A DNA stretch of 18,142 nucleotides from Thainema sp. (GTDB lineage: Bacteria; Cyanobacteriota; Cyanobacteriia; Phormidesmidales; Phormidesmidaceae). Of the stretch, positions 9,728 through 15,029 are shown piece after piece (within the stretch, counting starts at the first letter, position 1; the number at the start of each line of letters is the position of its first letter). The stretch covers positions 1 to 18,142 of the forward strand of contig JBQLZK010000099.1 of NCBI GenBank assembly GCA_052168235.1, written 5' to 3'. A program made the translations under genes and the position numbers. The notes beneath the pieces were generated by a model, which was not told the DNA's origin, ran no database searches, and saw only the letters and a list, made by a program, of their open reading frames with translations.

Positions 9728-9870
9728 TGAAGTGGACCCGGAAAACTAGACAAGGGGCTAAGCTCTGAACCACTCAAAGAATGATAGGAGTAGTTCATGA
9801 GCAACAAACGCAAGCAGTACAATTCAGAGTTCAAGGCCAGAGTGGCTTTAGAAGCGGTTCGGGGGGAGAA

Positions 9871-10174
9871 AGGGATACACCTGATGCTCAGGGTGGGCTT
9901 GGCTGAGCCGAGGCTTGGGATAAATCGCCTCCAACCCGAGTTGGCGCATCAACCGTTGAACTCGTTTGCGATTGACTACATAGCCTTGCTGACGCAGCAC
10001 AACAGCCATCCGACGACTGCCATAAAACGGCGTTTTCAGGTACTGCTGGTCAATCAACCGCAGTAGACTCAACTCCTCATCCGATGAACCTTGAGCTTGA
10101 TAGTAGAAGCTCGAACGGGCTACCTTGAGCAGTTCACATTGGCGGCTAATCGTTAATTGGGGATGGTCAGTCAC
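9871..10174 (-). pseudogene. IS3 OrfB N-terminal fragment with no DDE integrase core
   Basis: LTISRQCELL..ARSSFYY, PFYGSRRM, VNRKRVQRLMR..GLEAIYPKP; ends at ..HQVYP where the inverted left end starts. Confidence 0.85.
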
Positions 10175-10494
10175 GACCAGGGCTTTTCGGGCTTTAGCCC
10201 CAACTGTGCTGACCTGGTGGCTAAAAAATCCCGTTCCACCTTCAACTGGCCAATCTGTCGATACAACTCGTCTAGTTGAGCCTGCTGATTGGTCTGGTTG
10301 TTTTTGGCTGTCTCCGTGCCCTTCTCAAACAGGCTGCTGGCTCCCTCCGTTAACTGTCTTTTCCAGTTATTGATGACGGTGGGATGCAGTTGATACTGGC
10401 TGGCCAGTTCGGAGGTTGTCTTCTCCCCCCGAACCGCTTCTAAAGCCACTCTGGCCTTGAACTCTGAATTGTACTGCTTGCGTTTGTTGCTCAT
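10171..10494 (-). CDS. IS3 OrfA (HTH)
   Basis: KRKQYNSEFKARVALEA...LYRQIGQLKVERDFL. An in-frame T_TTT_TTA -1 slippery site (10222-10228, minus strand) opens into OrfB. Confidence 0.9.
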   Translation of the reverse strand: MSNKRKQYNSEFKARVALEAVRGEKTTSELASQYQLHPTVINNWKRQLTEGASSLFEKGTETAKNNQTNQQAQLDELYRQIGQLKVERDFLATRSAQLGLKPEKPWS

Positions 10495-10615
10495 GAACTA
10501 CTCCTATCATTCTTTGAGTGGTTCAGAGCTTAGCCCCTTGTCTAGTTTTCCGGGTCCACTTCAAACCTTTATCAGGAAAGGGTTTTAGCATGAGAAGTGA
10601 AGCCTTTTCAAAATA

Positions 10616-10786
10616 GACATTGATTGTGACGCAAGCTTAAAGAAATGACATCGATTGTGACGCAGTCTCAATTATCTCTTATTTCGCATATCAAATACTT
10701 GTATCGCCTACTGCATAAAGATTTTGAGAGCAGGCAAGATAGTGACATGCAAAGTGACGGGCGGACATGTAATTTGACGCTCAACA
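10616..10786. mobile_element. Putative Tn7-like transposon end (element body to the left)
   Basis: Four same-orientation GACAT-N6-TGACG sites at 10616, 10647, 10744 and 10764. The terminus reads TGTTGAGC... on the minus strand from 10786. Confidence 0.65.
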
Positions 10787-10822
10787 CATCCGTAATCGTC
10801 ACAGGTCAATCTGTATCTTTAG

Positions 10823-10869
10823 TGGACAATATATTACATGTGTAATACATTGTCCTAAGCGTGTAATAC
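10823..10869 (+). promoter_or_regulatory. Sigma70-type promoter overlapped by a dyad operator (candidate TrcR-type)
   Basis: TGGACA-17 bp-TACATT. Dyad GGACAATATATTACA-TG-TGTAATACATTGTCC (10824-10855), with an extra half-site TGTAATAC at 10862. Confidence 0.6.
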
Positions 10870-10886
10870 AAATAATACGTTTCGTC

Positions 10887-11126
10887 ATGTTGCACAATTT
10901 GACTACTGCACCCTATAGCGCCGCCGAATGCTGTCCCACTGAGGGGACGGGCAGATCGTCCATGCTATGCAGCTGGCTATTGGGATGGGGCGAGATGTAT
11001 CGACTTTTTGATGCTAAAGCTGTTCGCCATACTGCTGTCAGCTTCATCATCACAGGGTTAAAACCGAATCGGTTAATGAATGGTTTATTCAAAAGCGGTA
11101 GGAGCAGGTTCAATCCTGTTTCGTAG
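10887..11126 (+). CDS. Putative leader/small ORF upstream of the HNH gene (79 aa; start could be an internal ATG)
   Basis: Position between the promoter and the terminator; no recognised domain. Confidence 0.35.
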   Translation: MLHNLTTAPYSAAECCPTEGTGRSSMLCSWLLGWGEMYRLFDAKAVRHTAVSFIITGLKPNRLMNGLFKSGRSRFNPVS

Positions 11127-11150
11127 ATAGGAAAAGCATATGAACTGCTT

Positions 11151-11190
11151 CAGCCCCCGCTTTTAGTGATCAAAAGCGGGGCTGTTTTGT
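11151..11190 (+). terminator. Intrinsic-terminator-like hairpin directly ahead of the HNH ribosome binding site
   Basis: CAGCCCCCGCTTTT-AGTGATC-AAAAGCGGGGCTG followed by TTTTGT, then GGAGG at 11191. Confidence 0.7.
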
Positions 11191-11200
11191 GGAGGAAAGA

Positions 11201-11734
11201 ATGATGCCCGTTCGACAACAGAGCCAATCATCTTCAGTCTTACAGCGCCAGGTAGTGGTGTTTTCTAAAAACTACCTGCCGCTGATGCGAATCAATACCA
11301 AGCGTGCGATCGCACTTCTGGTCACAGGTCAAGCCGAAGCCCTTGATTTTGGGAATGCTCAGCAGTGGCAAGTCCGCTCACCCAATCTTGTACTACAGGT
11401 TTCTGAGCACATTCGCTTGGTGGGTAGTAATCCCGAACGGCAGTGGAAAGTGCCACCCGTTAACCGTCGGGAAGTCTTCCGCCGCGATAACCACACCTGC
11501 CAGTACTGCGGCAGCACCAAGCACCTGACGATTGACCACGTCATTCCCCGCTCCAAAGGCGGTACCCATACTTGGGATAACGTTGTCGCTGCTTGTAGTA
11601 CCTGTAACTCGGCCAAGGGCGATCGCTTACTGCATGAAATCAGCATGACGCTCAAGAGCAAACCCAAGGCACCTATCCATCCTGCGATCGCATTTGCCGA
11701 GCAGTTCTGGATCGAAAACGATTGGAATTCATGA
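11201..11734 (+). CDS. McrA-like HNH endonuclease associated with the tRNA array
   Basis: RD..CQYCG...TIDHVIPRSKGG...WDNVVAACSTCN..KG motif; GGAGG RBS precedes the ATGs at 11201 and 11204. Confidence 0.93.
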   Translation: MMPVRQQSQSSSVLQRQVVVFSKNYLPLMRINTKRAIALLVTGQAEALDFGNAQQWQVRSPNLVLQVSEHIRLVGSNPERQWKVPPVNRREVFRRDNHTCQYCGSTKHLTIDHVIPRSKGGTHTWDNVVAACSTCNSAKGDRLLHEISMTLKSKPKAPIHPAIAFAEQFWIENDWNS

Positions 11735-11800
11735 GTTGCGATCATGAGTTGCGATCGCAATTATCGCAATTAAGGGAACTGATAGCTCAACAACGCATGT

Positions 11801-11919
11801 ATACTACAAGCTTCAGTTCCCTCCTTAAACTCTTGTACAGCAAGCATTTCAAGCTTTTTTCAAAAATGTAGTATAAACCCCTTGACAACTGCGTGCTACA
11901 TATACTACAAATGTAATAT
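11801..11919 (+). promoter_or_regulatory. tRNA-array promoter region with repeated ATACTACA/TGTAGTAT operator half-sites
   Basis: ATACTACA at 11801, TGTAGTAT at 11867, dyad ATACTACA-AA-TGTAATAT at 11902-11919, TTGACA at 11882. The -10 assignment is uncertain. Confidence 0.6.
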
Positions 11920-11941
11920 GACAAGCCAATGAGCACTACCA

Positions 11942-12136
11942 ATGACAACTAGCTCCCTAGTATTACTCAAACGAACGGCAGTCAAACTCAAGTTGAGCAA
12001 AGCAGATCATCAATCTTCTTCCTCACCTTTAGAGAATTCGCCGGAGCACAGCCTTCAGTCTCATCGCTTGAACCAAACTCAAGCCCTCCGCGATCTGAGG
12101 CAAACCTATTACCTGGAGCGACGCAGCTTTCTGTAG
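11942..12136 (+). CDS. Putative small leader ORF of the tRNA operon (64 aa)
   Basis: ATG-initiated ORF filling the gap between the promoter and boxA; no recognised domain. Confidence 0.35.
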   Translation: MTTSSLVLLKRTAVKLKLSKADHQSSSSPLENSPEHSLQSHRLNQTQALRDLRQTYYLERRSFL

Positions 12137-12157
12137 TCCCTGCTCCAAGCCCACTCT

Positions 12158-12175
12158 GAACCTTGACAACTGAAT
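12158..12175 (+). promoter_or_regulatory. rRNA-operon-type boxA antitermination motif
   Basis: GAACCTTGACAACTGAAT resembles the cyanobacterial rrn boxA (GAACCTTGAAAA) and lies about 70 nt before the first tRNA. Confidence 0.6.
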
Positions 12176-12246
12176 GCCACCTTTAAAGATTGTGGTTTTC
12201 TGGATGTGAGAGCGGAACGCTCACAACCCGAAAACCACTACTACTT

Positions 12247-12322
12247 GGGGATGTAGCTTAGTCCGGCTCAAAGCAGTCGCCTGTCGAGCGAAAGATCGTG
12301 GGTTCAAATCCCATCATCCCCG
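12247..12322 (+). tRNA. trnD: tRNA-Asp(GTC)
   Basis: Acceptor GGGGATG/CATCCCC, loop CT-GTC-GA, T-loop TTCAAAT. Confidence 0.92.
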
Positions 12323-12325
12323 TGT

Positions 12326-12399
12326 AGCCGTGTGGACGACTAGATAAGTCGCTGTGATTCTCAGTCACAGAGAAGCGAGTGCAACTCTCGTCACGGCTT
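12326..12399 (+). tRNA. trnE: Atypical tRNA with CTC (Glu) anticodon
   Basis: Acceptor AGCCGTG/CACGGCT, loop TT-CTC-AG, T-loop TGCAACT, D-loop lacks GG. Confidence 0.7.
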
Positions 12400-12464
12400 T
12401 ATTGCCTTCAATGTTTTTTGTTGTGTGAACTTAGCCCACACAACAAAAAACATTGAAGGCAATA
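12400..12464. repeat. Perfect 28-bp inverted repeat spacer
   Basis: TATTGCCTTCAATGTTTTTTGTTGTGTG, 9-nt loop, exact reverse complement. Confidence 0.9.
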
Positions 12465-12468
12465 CTGA

Positions 12469-12544
12469 CTCCAGGTCGCCAAGTGGGAAGGCATTGGTCT
12501 GCAAAACCGATTACTCGCGGGTTCGATTCCCGCCCTGGAGTCCA
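12469..12544 (+). tRNA. trnC: tRNA-Cys(GCA)
   Basis: Acceptor CTCCAGG/CCTGGAG, loop CT-GCA-AA, U discriminator, CCA. Confidence 0.92.
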
Positions 12545-12549
12545 ATCAC

Positions 12550-12625
12550 TGCAGCGTAGCTTAACTGGCAAAGCCCCAAGTTCATACCTTGGTAATTGCG
12601 GGTTCAACTCCCGCCGCTGCGACCA
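12550..12625 (+). tRNA. trnM: tRNA with CAT anticodon (Met; Ile2 not excluded)
   Basis: Acceptor TGCAGCG/CGCTGCG, arm CCAAG-TTCATAC-CTTGG, CCA. Confidence 0.85.
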
Positions 12626-12728
12626 GTGCCTAAATATATTTTTGAGCAAGCGAGGTGCTTTGCGAAAGCAAGTCACAAATTTAGTCTCTGCATTCTACGG
12701 TGTCTTTCACAGTAGAACGCTTAATCCT

Positions 12729-12805
12729 GGTGCCGTAGGCAAATTGGTAAAGCCACAGGTCTTTCACACCTGCGTTTGCGGGTTCAACTCCCGTCGGCAC
12801 TGCCA
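12729..12805 (+). tRNA. trnE: tRNA-Glu(TTC)
   Basis: Acceptor GGTGCCG/CGGCACT, loop CT-TTC-AC, CCA. Confidence 0.92.
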
Positions 12806-12815
12806 ACTTTTTTGT

Positions 12816-12900
12816 GGGTCGGCTCGCCTATTGGCGTAGGCAACGGTCTGTAAAACCGCCGCATATTGCGTTGCTGGTTCAATTCCAGCCCGGCCTACCA
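12816..12900 (+). tRNA. trnY: tRNA-Tyr(GTA)
   Basis: Acceptor GGGTCGG/CCGGCCT, loop CT-GTA-AA, long variable arm, CCA. Confidence 0.9.
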
Positions 12901-12981
12901 ATTATCGAACACGTGATCTTTGCGCGGCAGTGCCGCGTCAAGACTCACTCAAAACATCAAGCACGAGTTGACAAGAACAAT

Positions 12982-13062
12982 GGAGAGTAAACCGATTAGG
13001 CAATCGGCGCTGTTTGCTAAACAGATGGATGAACAATTGTGGTTCGAGTCCACTGCTCTCCG
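12982..13062 (+). tRNA. trnS: Atypical tRNA-Ser(GCT) with extended D-stem
   Basis: Acceptor GGAGAGT/GCTCTCC, D-arm CCGATT-AGGC-AATCGG, loop TT-GCT-AA. Confidence 0.8.
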
Positions 13063-13120
13063 CCTTCATCTAACTTTACGAAAGGCTTGCCCCGCAAGCT
13101 TTTCATAAACAAATCAGCAT

Positions 13121-13198
13121 GAGGACGTGGTGTAACTGGATAAACATCTCAGACTACGAATCTGAAGAGTGGGGGTTCAAGTCCCTCCGTCCTTGCCA
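13121..13198 (+). tRNA. trnR: tRNA-Arg(ACG)
   Basis: Acceptor GAGGACG/CGTCCTT, arm TCAGA-CTACGAA-TCTGA, CCA. Confidence 0.92.
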
Positions 13199-13202
13199 AT
13201 TT

Positions 13203-13288
13203 GGAGAGTACCGCTGAATGGTCGGCAACTGGTCTTGAAAACCAGGGTAGCTCTCGGGCTAGGGGTTCGATTCCTCTACTCTCCGCCA
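13203..13288 (+). tRNA. trnS: tRNA-Ser(TGA)
   Basis: Acceptor GGAGAGT/ACTCTCC, arm CTGGT-CTTGAAA-ACCAG, long variable arm, CCA. Confidence 0.9.
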
Positions 13289-13291
13289 AAT

Positions 13292-13412
13292 GGGAAGTTG
13301 GTGAAGCTGGTGCTCACGTGCCGCTGTTGGCGAAGCCTGTCCAAAGGACATAGACGGCGAGATGGCAGTTCGTTCGCAAAGCGTCTCCGAAGGAGAATCC
13401 TGTCACTTCCCA
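13292..13412 (+). pseudogene. tRNA gene interrupted by two 24-nt inserts (anticodon loop and T-loop); possibly the former tRNA-Phe
   Basis: Acceptor GGGAAGT/ACTTCCC and D-stem GTGA/TCAC. Removing 13327-13350 and 13373-13396 restores the 7-nt loops CTGTAGA and TTCGATC. Confidence 0.8.
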
Positions 13413-13481
13413 CTCAGGTGGTCTTTAATTTCTGGTTGCATGGGTTCCACTCAATCAGAAGTTGAAAACTATCCCATTCGT

Positions 13482-13557
<76 letters not shown>

Positions 13558-13613
13558 TTGATTTAACTGTGAAAAGCTTGCTGCGCAAGCTTTTCACAAA
13601 ACACAGATATCAC

Positions 13614-13690
13614 TGCCGAGTAGACGACATGGAAAGTCGCTGTGACTCTGAATCACGGAGATGCTAGTTCGAATCTAGCCTCGGCATCCA
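13614..13690 (+). tRNA. trnQ: tRNA-Gln(CTG)
   Basis: Acceptor TGCCGAG/CTCGGCA (U1-A72), loop CT-CTG-AA, CCA. Confidence 0.9.
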
Positions 13691-13691
13691 A

Positions 13692-13763
13692 TGCCCTGTG
13701 GTGTAACTGGCAACACCCCGCCCTTTGAAGGCGTAGTTCTAGGTTCGAATCCTGGTGGGGCAG
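13692..13763 (+). tRNA. trnQ: tRNA-Gln(TTG)
   Basis: Acceptor TGCCCTG/TGGGGCA, loop CT-TTG-AA. Confidence 0.88.
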
Positions 13764-13872
13764 TTGGGAGGTAAACAGTCGCCTGGGTCAAATTGCTGCG
13801 CGCCTCCCATTTCATAAAAAGGATAGTGTGTCGCGTGCGATGCACACGACACACTTCACAAAACAGATTTTT

Positions 13873-13946
<74 letters not shown>

Positions 13947-14050
13947 CTGTGGCGATAGTTATTAGATTCAGGTCTTTTACGGAGCGGTTAGCCATTCCAT
14001 AAAAGACCAATCCAAATTGCGATCGCAACTATTACAACTACCGCAACTAT

Positions 14051-14123
14051 CGGGATGTAATTCAGTGGTCAGAAGCCTTGGTTTGGGACCAAGGAGTCGT
14101 AGGTTCGAATCCTACCGTCCCGA
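14051..14123 (+). tRNA. trnP: tRNA-Pro(TGG)
   Basis: Acceptor CGGGATG/CGTCCCG, loop TT-TGG-GA. Confidence 0.92.
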
Positions 14124-14138
14124 TTTATCCATCCTCAG

Positions 14139-14216
14139 GCACCGGAGGCGGAAGTGGTGGACGCGCACGCCCGATAAGCGTGTTACTAGCAGGTTCGACT
14201 CCTGCCCGGTGTACCA
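14139..14216 (+). tRNA. trnI: tRNA-Ile(GAT), with non-canonical C33 and A8
   Basis: Acceptor GCACCGG/CCGGTGT, arm CACGC-CCGATAA-GCGTG, CCA. Confidence 0.82.
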
Positions 14217-14271
14217 CTTGATGGGGTTGTATCTGAGCCATACGTGGCTCAGATACAACCAGGCTGGATGA

Positions 14272-14343
14272 GGGTCGTTGGCAGAGCGGATATGCAGCCG
14301 CCTTTTAAGCGGAGAGATCCAGGTTCAACCCCTGGGCGACCCA
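14272..14343 (+). tRNA. trnK: tRNA-Lys(TTT)
   Basis: Acceptor GGGTCGT/GCGACCC, loop CT-TTT-AA. Confidence 0.9.
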
Positions 14344-14345
14344 CT

Positions 14346-14420
14346 GGATTTTGGATTGGCGATTTTGGATTGCGGATTCTGCCCCCTTATTCAAAACCTA
14401 AAGTCATCGATCCGAAATCC
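14346..14420. repeat. Degenerate heptamer (GATTTTG/AATCCAA, STRR-like) fold-back repeat
   Basis: GGATTTTGGATTGGCGATTTTGGATT ... ATCCGAAATCC. Confidence 0.65.
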
Positions 14421-14425
14421 CCCTT

Positions 14426-14498
14426 GGGCTGTTAGCTCAGTTGGCAGAGCAGCCGCCTCTTAAGCGGAAGCGAGTAGGTTCGAAACCTACACAGCCCA
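14426..14498 (+). tRNA. trnK: tRNA-Lys(CTT)
   Basis: Acceptor GGGCTGT/ACAGCCC, loop CT-CTT-AA. Confidence 0.92.
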
Positions 14499-14501
14499 CT
14501 T

Positions 14502-14555
14502 GGATTTTAGATTTTAGATTTTGGATTGTGCCCACCAATCCAAAATCTAAAATCC
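14502..14555. repeat. Heptamer (GATTTTA/G, STRR-like) fold-back repeat
   Basis: GGATTTTAGATTTTAGATTTTGGATTG...CAATCCAAAATCTAAAATCC. Confidence 0.8.
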
Positions 14556-14559
14556 TTAA

Positions 14560-14633
14560 GCCCCTGTGATGCAAACGGTAGACATAGCTTGCTTAAAACA
14601 AGTTTGTTGCGAGTTCGATTCTCGCCAGGGGTA
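14560..14633 (+). tRNA. trnL: tRNA-Leu(TAA), intronless, short variable region
   Basis: Acceptor GCCCCTG/CAGGGGT, arm GCTTG-CTTAAAA-CAAGT, variable region TTGTT. Confidence 0.86.
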
Positions 14634-14634
14634 T

Positions 14635-14710
14635 TGCGGGGATGGAGCAACAGCGGCTCGGAAGGTTCAACCCTTCAAATCAGTGAGTGCAATTCTCACC
14701 CCCGCGACCA
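14635..14710 (+). tRNA. Aberrant initiator-Met-like tRNA with a 6-nt anticodon loop (pseudo or non-canonical)
   Basis: Acceptor TGCGGGG/CCCCGCG-A-CCA, D-stem GAGC/GCTC, arm GAAGG-TTCAAC-CCTTC, T-loop TGCAATT. Confidence 0.65.
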
Positions 14711-14713
14711 AAT

Positions 14714-14788
14714 GCTGGTGTGGCTCAACGGTAGAGCAACTGTTTTGTAAACAGTCGGTTGCAGGTTCAAATCCTGTCACCAGCCCCA
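14714..14788 (+). tRNA. trnT: tRNA-Thr(TGT)
   Basis: Acceptor GCTGGTG/CACCAGC, loop TT-TGT-AA, CCA. Confidence 0.92.
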
Positions 14789-14791
14789 TTT

Positions 14792-14865
14792 GCGAACGTG
14801 ATGTAGCGGTAGCATCTGAGTCTGCCAGTCTCAGCGTATGGGTTCAAATCCCATCGTTCGCTCCA
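14792..14865 (+). tRNA. trnG: tRNA-Gly(GCC)
   Basis: Acceptor GCGAACG/CGTTCGC, loop CT-GCC-AG, U discriminator, CCA. Confidence 0.9.
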
Positions 14866-14866
14866 A

Positions 14867-14941
14867 AGTCCTGTAGCTCAACGGGAGAGCAAGCGCCTTA
14901 CAAGCGAGAGGTTGCGGGTTCAAATCCTGCCAGGACTACCA
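14867..14941 (+). tRNA. trnV: tRNA-Val(TAC)
   Basis: Acceptor AGTCCTG/CAGGACT, loop CT-TAC-AA (anticodon stem has only 3 Watson-Crick pairs), CCA. Confidence 0.87.
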
Positions 14942-14948
14942 AAATTAC

Positions 14949-15022
14949 GGGAGTGTCGCCTAATGGATGAGGGCATCGATCTTCTAAATCGATAGGTGTA
15001 GGTTCGAATCCTACCACTCCTG
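14949..15022 (+). tRNA. trnR: tRNA-Arg(TCT)
   Basis: Acceptor GGGAGTG/CACTCCT, arm TCGAT-CTTCTAA-ATCGA. Confidence 0.92.
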
Positions 15023-15029
15023 CTAGTCC

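Follow-up and report, generated by a model that had tools for sequence, protein, structure and literature searches.

The 18,142-nt stretch of Thainema sp. DNA analysed here (contig JBQLZK010000099.1; hereafter the window) holds an L-type tRNA array of cyanobacteria, preceded by an HNH endonuclease gene, the genomic context of all8564 and the trn operon in Anabaena. The approximately 340 nt that lead from the promoter to the HNH gene contain a real and conserved cis element, a new form of a known control. They comprise a long open reading frame (ORF), a predicted intrinsic terminator that ends just before the HNH Shine-Dalgarno sequence, and a predicted alternative pairing that would exclude the terminator; this pairing is newly found here and is conserved among relatives of the gene. 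We give roughly even chances to the reading that this segment operates as a ribosome-dependent transcription attenuator, layered on repression by TrcR. The main features, in window coordinates, are as follows.

10823..10851, + strand: predicted promoter, with -35 TGGACA (10823-10828), a 17-nt spacer and -10 TACATT (10846-10851), from a consensus scan
10831..10879: repressor-box-like TGTAATAY repeats at 10831-10838 (minus strand), 10841-10848 and 10862-10869, then AATAATAC, from an octamer scan
10887..11126, + strand: leader ORF, 79 codons, stop TAG at 11124-11126, no Shine-Dalgarno sequence
11091..11098, + strand: predicted antiterminator 5' strand AAAAGCGG, inside the leader ORF; AGCGGG(A)GG in most relatives
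11101..11122, + strand: hairpin P2, 8-bp stem GGAGCAGG (11101-11108) / CCTGTTTC (11115-11122), 6-nt loop TTCAAT (11109-11114)
11155..11190, + strand: predicted intrinsic terminator, stem-loop 11155-11181 followed by TGTTTTGT; its 5' arm (11157-11164) doubles as the antiterminator 3' strand
11191..11195, + strand: HNH Shine-Dalgarno sequence GGAGG
11201..11734, + strand: HNH endonuclease gene, 177 aa from the ATG at 11201, homologue of Anabaena all8564; Pfam HNH and HNH_5, E ~1e-17

A sequence-only reading of this region had described the promoter, the 79-aa ORF, the GC hairpin with its U tract and the HNH Shine-Dalgarno sequence, and all of them lie where it had placed them, within 10823-11203.

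Sample of relatives

Genome contigs were scanned with the HNH protein, yielding 551 relatives. The best 80 of these 551, at 70-96% identity and all titled as cyanobacteria or metagenome-assembled genomes, were compared, making 81 sequences with the window. HNH starts in the relatives were placed by tblastn and the upstream DNA was then compared; pair counts refer to an 80-row alignment, A1.

Terminator and start of the HNH gene

A terminator was scored where a hairpin of at least 8 bp and a ΔG of -12 kcal/mol or lower was followed by at least five T in 9 nt and lay no more than 75 nt before the HNH ATG. Such a structure is present in 79 of the 81 sequences (median ΔG -23.2 kcal/mol), the exceptions being L037, which has a different upstream region, and L056, with a weaker hairpin. 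The stem in the window has 10 pairs, six of them GC, a 7-nt loop and the tail CTGTTTTGTG. On A1 the 13 terminator pairs are formed in 94.9% of cells; sliding one strand lowers this to 45-62%. Seven of the pairs show double changes. The 3' end of the hairpin lies 16-25 nt from the HNH ATG (candidates at 11201 and 11204 in the window), and a Shine-Dalgarno-like word stands between the two in 80 of 81 sequences. So short a gap cannot accommodate a promoter, and the HNH mRNA must read through the terminator. The earlier proposal that the HNH gene is reached by read-through of this hairpin is thus supported.

The support rests on the relatives, since the window by itself is not above chance for terminator, promoter or fold: it contains two terminator-like sites against 1.7 +/- 1.5 in shuffled sequences and two promoter-like sites against 2.8, and its 331-nt leader folds with z = -1.69, four of 100 shuffles folding as well.

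In the consensus fold the sequence CCUUCC before the leader ATG pairs with the HNH Shine-Dalgarno sequence about 330 nt away. This pairing is weak, with four pairs, 84.8% canonical (70% when slid by one) and no compensatory change.

Leader ORF

An ORF was accepted when it began with ATG, had at least 60 codons, spanned the small hairpin and ended 0-50 nt before the terminator. It is kept in 76 of the 81 sequences (not in L037, L047, L053, L056 and L063) at 24 different lengths from 52 to 121 codons, the commonest being 72 (25 loci) and 71 (16 loci). Despite this variation the conserved ATG, which follows ...ACTACAgccttcc, is always in frame with the conserved 3' element, so that the insertions and deletions are multiples of three; the other two frames contain a median of five stops and never none. 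A codon alignment was built from 66 of the 76 leaders, ORFs shorter than 60 or longer than 85 codons being dropped, and also without the poorly aligned L021, L025, L043, L057, L058 and L063. On the 66 leaders the median dN/dS is 0.51 in frame against 0.98 and 0.86 in the shifted frames, differences fall at codon positions 1, 2 and 3 in proportions of 30%, 30% and 40%, and the column entropies are 0.80, 0.81 and 1.04 bits (Mann-Whitney p = 4e-4). The mean column identity of the peptide is 42%, compared with 75% for the HNH protein of the same loci. The frame is under selection and looks translated, with a loosely conserved peptide.

Many synonymous sites of the ORF hardly vary, most of all those in AGC GGG AGG TGC (94-97% conserved), which points to constraint at the RNA level. 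The sequence-only reading had asked for conservation of the ORF or of the structure and had considered that the leader might be a structured RNA instead of a peptide; conservation was found in both ORF and terminator, and that alternative is not supported, the leader showing a coding-like frame and covarying helices together.

The peptide matches no Pfam or NCBIfam family, and a database search with it returned 58 proteins, all called 'hypothetical protein' or unnamed. Its presence under that name in many cyanobacterial genomes, together with the conserved and coding-like ORF, would suit a simple two-gene operon, in which a small protein is made along with the HNH enzyme, a leaky terminator fixes their ratio and the alternative helix has no regulatory role; the small protein might be a partner or an inhibitor of the nuclease. 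The 17-fold rise of the HNH gene in an unstressed trcR mutant, described below, fits such an arrangement as well. What makes this operon unlikely in our estimation is the peptide itself, with its low identity relative to HNH, its dN/dS of about 0.5 and an AlphaFold2 model of mean pLDDT 48.6 in which no residue reaches 70, and in addition the fixed synonymous sites and the placement of the antiterminator at one position in 72 of 76 leaders.

A tiny upstream ORF from an ATG at 11140 to a TAG at 11164-11166 (MNCFSPRF), with its stop in the terminator loop, was considered and rejected; its ATG is ATC or AGC in relatives.

Antiterminator

The AGC GGG AGG TGC segment resembles the 3' arm of the terminator and is complementary to its 5' arm. 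In folds of each nascent leader RNA that end at the terminator loop and so lack the 3' arm, an upstream element is paired with the 5' arm in 65 of 76 leaders. The pairing predicted for the window, AAAAGCGG (11091-11098) with CCGCUUUU (11157-11164), comes from its own nascent fold and is not among these 65. When every 16-nt segment of the leader was tried against the 5' arm, the best duplex fell between -80 and -55 in 72 of 76 leaders. The upstream strand thus lies about 60 nt 5' of the terminator arm, in the last third of the ORF, and the helix encloses two hairpins, P2 and P3. The outer P2 stem, GGUG/CACC, is kept in 71-73 of 80 sequences per pair while its loop letters vary; the P3 stem is GGGAA/UUCCC. 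On A1 the whole domain comprises 25 pairs, 81.2% paired compared with 39-52% when slid, of which 18 show double changes, and none of 500 shuffles reached any of the five measures used. The outer antiterminator pairs covary (for example UA 26, CG 23, UG 13), and the letters that extend the helix differ by lineage, as in the window, L001 and L007. A profile of the switch matched 80 of the 81 sequences by nhmmer, its other matches being the palindromic hairpin on the opposite strand only, and neither the window nor the flanks of the 80 loci contain a second copy. In 74 of 76 leaders the terminator form is favoured at equilibrium, by a median margin of 5 kcal/mol; the choice between the two folds would therefore have to be kinetic, made during transcription.

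Most leaders contain two copies of the word AUCAAC (A1 consensus; L007, 3812-3994, is an example), one just 5' of the antiterminator's 5' strand and the other in the P3 loop, just 5' of its 3' strand. The repetition may be fortuitous, or the two copies may form a paired binding site.

The closing helix with its two hairpins and near-invariant junctions (AGCGGGAGGUGCA, CACC and AUAGGG), overlapping a terminator in the manner of ON-type riboswitches and accompanied by a tRNA array at 48 of 80 loci, recalls a sensor domain that binds a small molecule, uncharged tRNA or a stress-linked protein, the ORF being secondary. We hold this to be improbable: the hairpin loops vary, the domain is spanned by a conserved ORF frame, tRNA arrays are absent from 18 loci for which about 4 kb of downstream sequence is available, and no Rfam family, T-box included, was matched at E<=10. 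That search (Rfam release 15, positions 10500-12300) gave three matches, none of them in the leader (10887-11200), with T-box, HEARO and tRNA among the families covered.

The same searches bear on P2, in which the sequence-only reading had seen a mimic of a tRNA T-arm, GCAGG-TTCAAT-CCTGT. The hairpin exists, these letters being the core of 11101-11122, and GCAGGTTCAAT-CCTG differs from T-arms of the window tRNAs (e.g. 13528-13548, family D1) by the loss of one loop base and a single substitution, a likeness from which a functional mimic, recognised for example by tRNA-processing or -modifying enzymes, could be imagined. Its loop has 6 nt instead of 7, ARAGORN finds no tRNA at P2, and T-loop-like letters occur in one of 76 leaders, that of the window, where relatives have GCAAU, GUUAC and other loops. 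In our view the comparison already refutes the mimic, which retains a negligible probability, and the T-loop likeness is an accident of one lineage. The tRNA-like, T-box and HEARO readings of the leader were rejected on the same grounds, with neither an Rfam or ARAGORN match nor conservation.

HNH protein

The HNH domain is closest to those of IscB and Cas9: the NCBIfam model guided_IscB scores 67.6 bits, over the HNH part only, and a family profile matches TbaIscB in PDB at E 1e-18. No RuvC match was obtained in any search with this protein. Relatives with two domains and about 170 aa abound, with 4797 cluster representatives at E <= 1e-10. The N-terminus, NYLPLMRIN...RAIALLVTGQAEAL, resembles by eye the PLMP sequence printed in the IsrB paper, and contains a PLM motif with the order beta-beta-alpha-beta-beta in a model of mean pLDDT 61. 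A single-sequence search for PLMP gave only noise (E >= 0.46), and two profiles run against PDB aligned only in the HNH part, not in the N-terminus. Foldseek with the same model returned nothing at E <= 0.001 (IsrB at E = 1.1, mitochondrial IF3 at E = 1.3), Pfam RRXRR was touched by one of 67 family members (E = 0.0086), and the top score of an Atlas search with residues 10-92 was 0.77, no more than a lead.

IshB is described as a family of about 180 aa combining PLMP and HNH. The present protein, with 177 aa, an HNH domain of the IscB/Cas9 type and no RuvC, agrees with this description in its size and its HNH domain. It has the look of an array-linked IscB relative that lacks RuvC, and the PLM motif would make it IshB-like. 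Among the papers found by literature searches, none links IshB to cyanobacterial tRNA arrays.

This kinship raises another explanation of the leader: the N-terminal domain of the HNH protein would bind it, as a partner RNA or as a target of autoregulation. Either the terminated leader of about 330 nt or its terminal hairpin would be bound, giving feedback on the protein's own expression or an RNA subunit like omega RNA. In IsrB the PLMP domain touches the terminal hairpin of omega RNA and the Shine-Dalgarno sequence just 5' of its own gene; the IscB/Cas9-like HNH, the PLMP-like N-terminus seen by eye, the described PLMP-plus-HNH family and the several covarying helices along the whole leader all lean in this direction. 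A pure guide-RNA scaffold would have no need of a frame kept through in-frame length changes or of a coding signature, the PLMP assignment is weak (the profiles aligned in HNH alone and the Foldseek match to IsrB is at E = 1.1), the leader has no Rfam match at E<=10, HEARO included, and no IS200/IS605 (Y1) transposase was found among the window ORFs scanned, the neighbours being DDE_5 and HTH transposase fragments. We consider such a partnership unlikely. More doubtful still is its fullest form, in which HNH is an IshB-type relative of IscB, the leader of about 330 nt its RNA subunit and the array module a stress-induced RNA-protein nuclease; if this were true, the embedded ORF and the switch would time the assembly of that nuclease. 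If the protein is related to IscB, the leader bears on the little-studied IshB branch.

Promoter and the Anabaena counterpart

Transcription of the leader would start near 10858, a position placed by alignment. Relatives have a like promoter layout 5' of the leader ORF (TGGACA or TAGACA, 17-18 nt, TAGTAT or TATTAT), and that of the window matches P(all8564), which was mapped in Anabaena by 5'-RACE according to the supplement text. The octamer TGTAATAY has four matches in 18 kb, three at the leader promoter and one at the array promoter (11912-11919), against an expectation of 0.43; four were reached in none of 200 shuffles. These boxes are similar to the 9-nt repeats and TrcR sites reported at all8564 and trn in Anabaena PCC 7120 (PMC8421152; PMC10272220) and are putative sites for TrcR.

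The window HNH protein is 79% identical to the product of the gene on the delta plasmid of Nostoc PCC 7120 (L081), where the order is the same: promoter, a 72-codon ORF (1142-1360), terminator, AGGAG, and the ATG of all8564 at 1438 (gene 1438-1974). The leader ORF has no annotation in the RefSeq entry for this plasmid as listed by PLSDB. Supplementary Fig. 9 of PMC8421152, in its text, gives P(all8564) with -35 TAGACA and -10 TATTAT and RACE products of 836 and 320 bp, and carries 'orf1' as a bare label beside all8564. The start at P(all8564) falls about 30 nt 5' of the leader ORF ATG in L081, and the size of the 836-bp product would suit a start near L081 position 1113 with a primer inside all8564. 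The stretch from all8564 to the first tRNA contains no ORF of 45 aa or more that begins with ATG. Since no such ORF follows all8564 and the 836-bp product fits, we infer from the figure text that orf1 is the leader ORF, that the HNH mRNA starts upstream of it and that read-through occurs in vivo in Anabaena.

The sequence-only reading knew of no description of the element. This stands in so far as the searchable full-text literature holds no account of the leader switch and the main texts of PMC8421152 and PMC10272220 contain none of the terms leader, terminator, hairpin, attenuation, riboswitch, uORF or orf1; the unexplained orf1 label in the supplementary figure qualifies it.

At least five tRNA genes lie downstream in 48 of the 80 loci and none in 25, 18 of which have about 4 kb of downstream sequence. 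The module occurs with and without arrays and thus belongs to the HNH gene and not to the array. An array-less Nostoc group (L036, L046, L065, L067, L072-L074, L077-L079) keeps the whole leader-terminator-HNH module with an ORF about 24 nt longer (tail ...R.KVSTT), whose stop abuts the terminator. This group is probably the counterpart of asr0855-alr0856, a chromosomal Anabaena pair that lies beside trcR according to PMC10272220. In an Acaryochloris pREB6 relative of 37% identity, a single case, no such leader was found.

Proposed mechanism

The reading that we favour combines three features of the element: an intrinsic terminator, a mutually exclusive antiterminator that uses its 5' arm, and a conserved ORF running over the switch strand. 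The antiterminator would form first in the nascent RNA, because both its strands precede the 3' arm of the terminator. A ribosome keeping pace with the polymerase would unwind the antiterminator and come to sit at the stop codon; the freed 5' arm would then enter the more stable terminator, and transcription would end in a leader RNA of about 330 nt. If translation were slow or absent, as with elongation inhibitors or a shortage of tRNA, the antiterminator would persist and the polymerase would read into the HNH gene, to be translated from its own strong Shine-Dalgarno sequence. Least certain is the direction in which the switch would work, and that ribosome speed is its arbiter is what we infer from the arrangement. 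Published Anabaena data report that chloramphenicol induces all8564 jointly with the trn operon and that the regulon responds to elongation inhibitors and not to kasugamycin. The attenuator model agrees with induction by elongation inhibitors, which loss of TrcR repression explains at least partly: according to PMC10272220, TrcR binds both promoters, those of all8564 and trn, and deletion of trcR alone, with no antibiotic, raises all8564 17-fold.

Several observations weigh against this mechanism. The 17-fold rise without stress implies appreciable read-through in unstressed cells. The leader ORF is long for a leader peptide, a Shine-Dalgarno-like 4-mer precedes it in only four of 76 leaders, and inspection of the consensus peptide revealed no run of regulatory codons and no stalling motif. 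The stop is not fixed: 58 of 76 leaders have it between P2 and P3, at 23-28 nt 5' of the terminator, and 11 have it 1-2 nt from the terminator. Ten of these 11 are Nostoc loci, and all ten lack a tRNA array. A ribosome terminating at such an abutting stop would cover the 5' arm, so that the opposite outcome is predicted there. Covariation is seen as well in helices near the start of the ORF, within its 5' half (one composite hairpin of 18 pairs, 85-92% canonical, with seven compensatory pairs), and the attenuator model does not need them. The six core antiterminator pairs are invariant and provide no covariation evidence either way, the shuffle controls are inflated by kinship among the aligned sequences, and the comparison covers the closest relatives, the best 80 found. 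Translation of the leader ORF and termination at the hairpin are both predictions.

Surroundings of the element

The array directly downstream of the HNH gene comprises 22 tRNA genes at 12246-15023 on the + strand (ARAGORN), 18 of them above the Rfam tRNA threshold. A second promoter, in the 11880-12246 region and with the TGTAATAY box at 11912-11919, drives the array and is followed by a 64-aa ORF (11942-12136) whose C-terminus, ...QALRDLRQTYYLERRSFL, is also present in L001, L004, L019 and L054; in the remaining loci the ORF has 128 aa or is missing. In most loci a box GAACCTTGAMAACTGAAT..GCCACC stands 5' of tRNA-Asp; after this box the window has an extra, inserted hairpin with 19-bp arms (12192-12238). 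Within the array, the gap between tRNA-Glu and tRNA-Cys contains a 28-nt perfect inverted repeat with a 9-nt gap (12400-12464), and further inter-tRNA hairpins lie at 13568-13598, 13825-13855 and 14225-14260.

On the other side, perfect inverted repeats of 143 nt (9728-9870 and 10421-10563) bracket ORFs with transposase HTH domains, forming an insertion sequence (9728-10563) about 260 nt 5' of the leader promoter. Between it and the promoter are direct repeats GACATYGATTGTGACGCA and more GTGAC/TGACG words (10616-10671, 10740-10800).

Comparison with known control systems

The trn operon and its HNH neighbour are a model for the cyanobacterial response to ribosome-targeting antibiotics. TrcR is the only control described so far, and how it senses stress is still unknown in the literature. 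A leader that reads the speed of translation would, if the favoured attenuator reading is true, be a second and independent sensor in this regulon, and would be among the few leader-peptide attenuators proposed in cyanobacteria.

Control of this kind is familiar from leader-peptide attenuators of the trp, his and pyrBI type and from the antibiotic-responsive leader-ORF attenuators of resistance genes. As in these, an upstream ORF is present, a terminator precedes the regulated gene and the antiterminator strand lies within reach of the ribosome. Unlike them, the ORF has about 72 codons instead of 14-30, with no run of regulatory codons and no Shine-Dalgarno sequence, the antiterminator is a three-helix structure that holds the stop codon, the regulated gene encodes an HNH nuclease and the hosts are cyanobacteria.

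The omega RNAs of IscB and IsrB, and HEARO, are likewise structured RNAs directly 5' of a gene of the HNH family, with the terminal hairpin beside the Shine-Dalgarno sequence; the present leader differs in having no Rfam match and a frame that runs through the RNA, with no RuvC and no IS200/IS605 context seen. The regulation by TrcR concerns the same gene pair with the same promoter layout, boxes being present at both window promoters, while the main texts of PMC8421152 and PMC10272220 include no leader, terminator or uORF. The uORF of E. coli topAI-yjhQ, as described in the abstract of PMC12121999, senses several classes of ribosome-targeting antibiotics and is likewise a leader ORF before a potentially harmful gene; by that likeness the present leader would report general translation stress.

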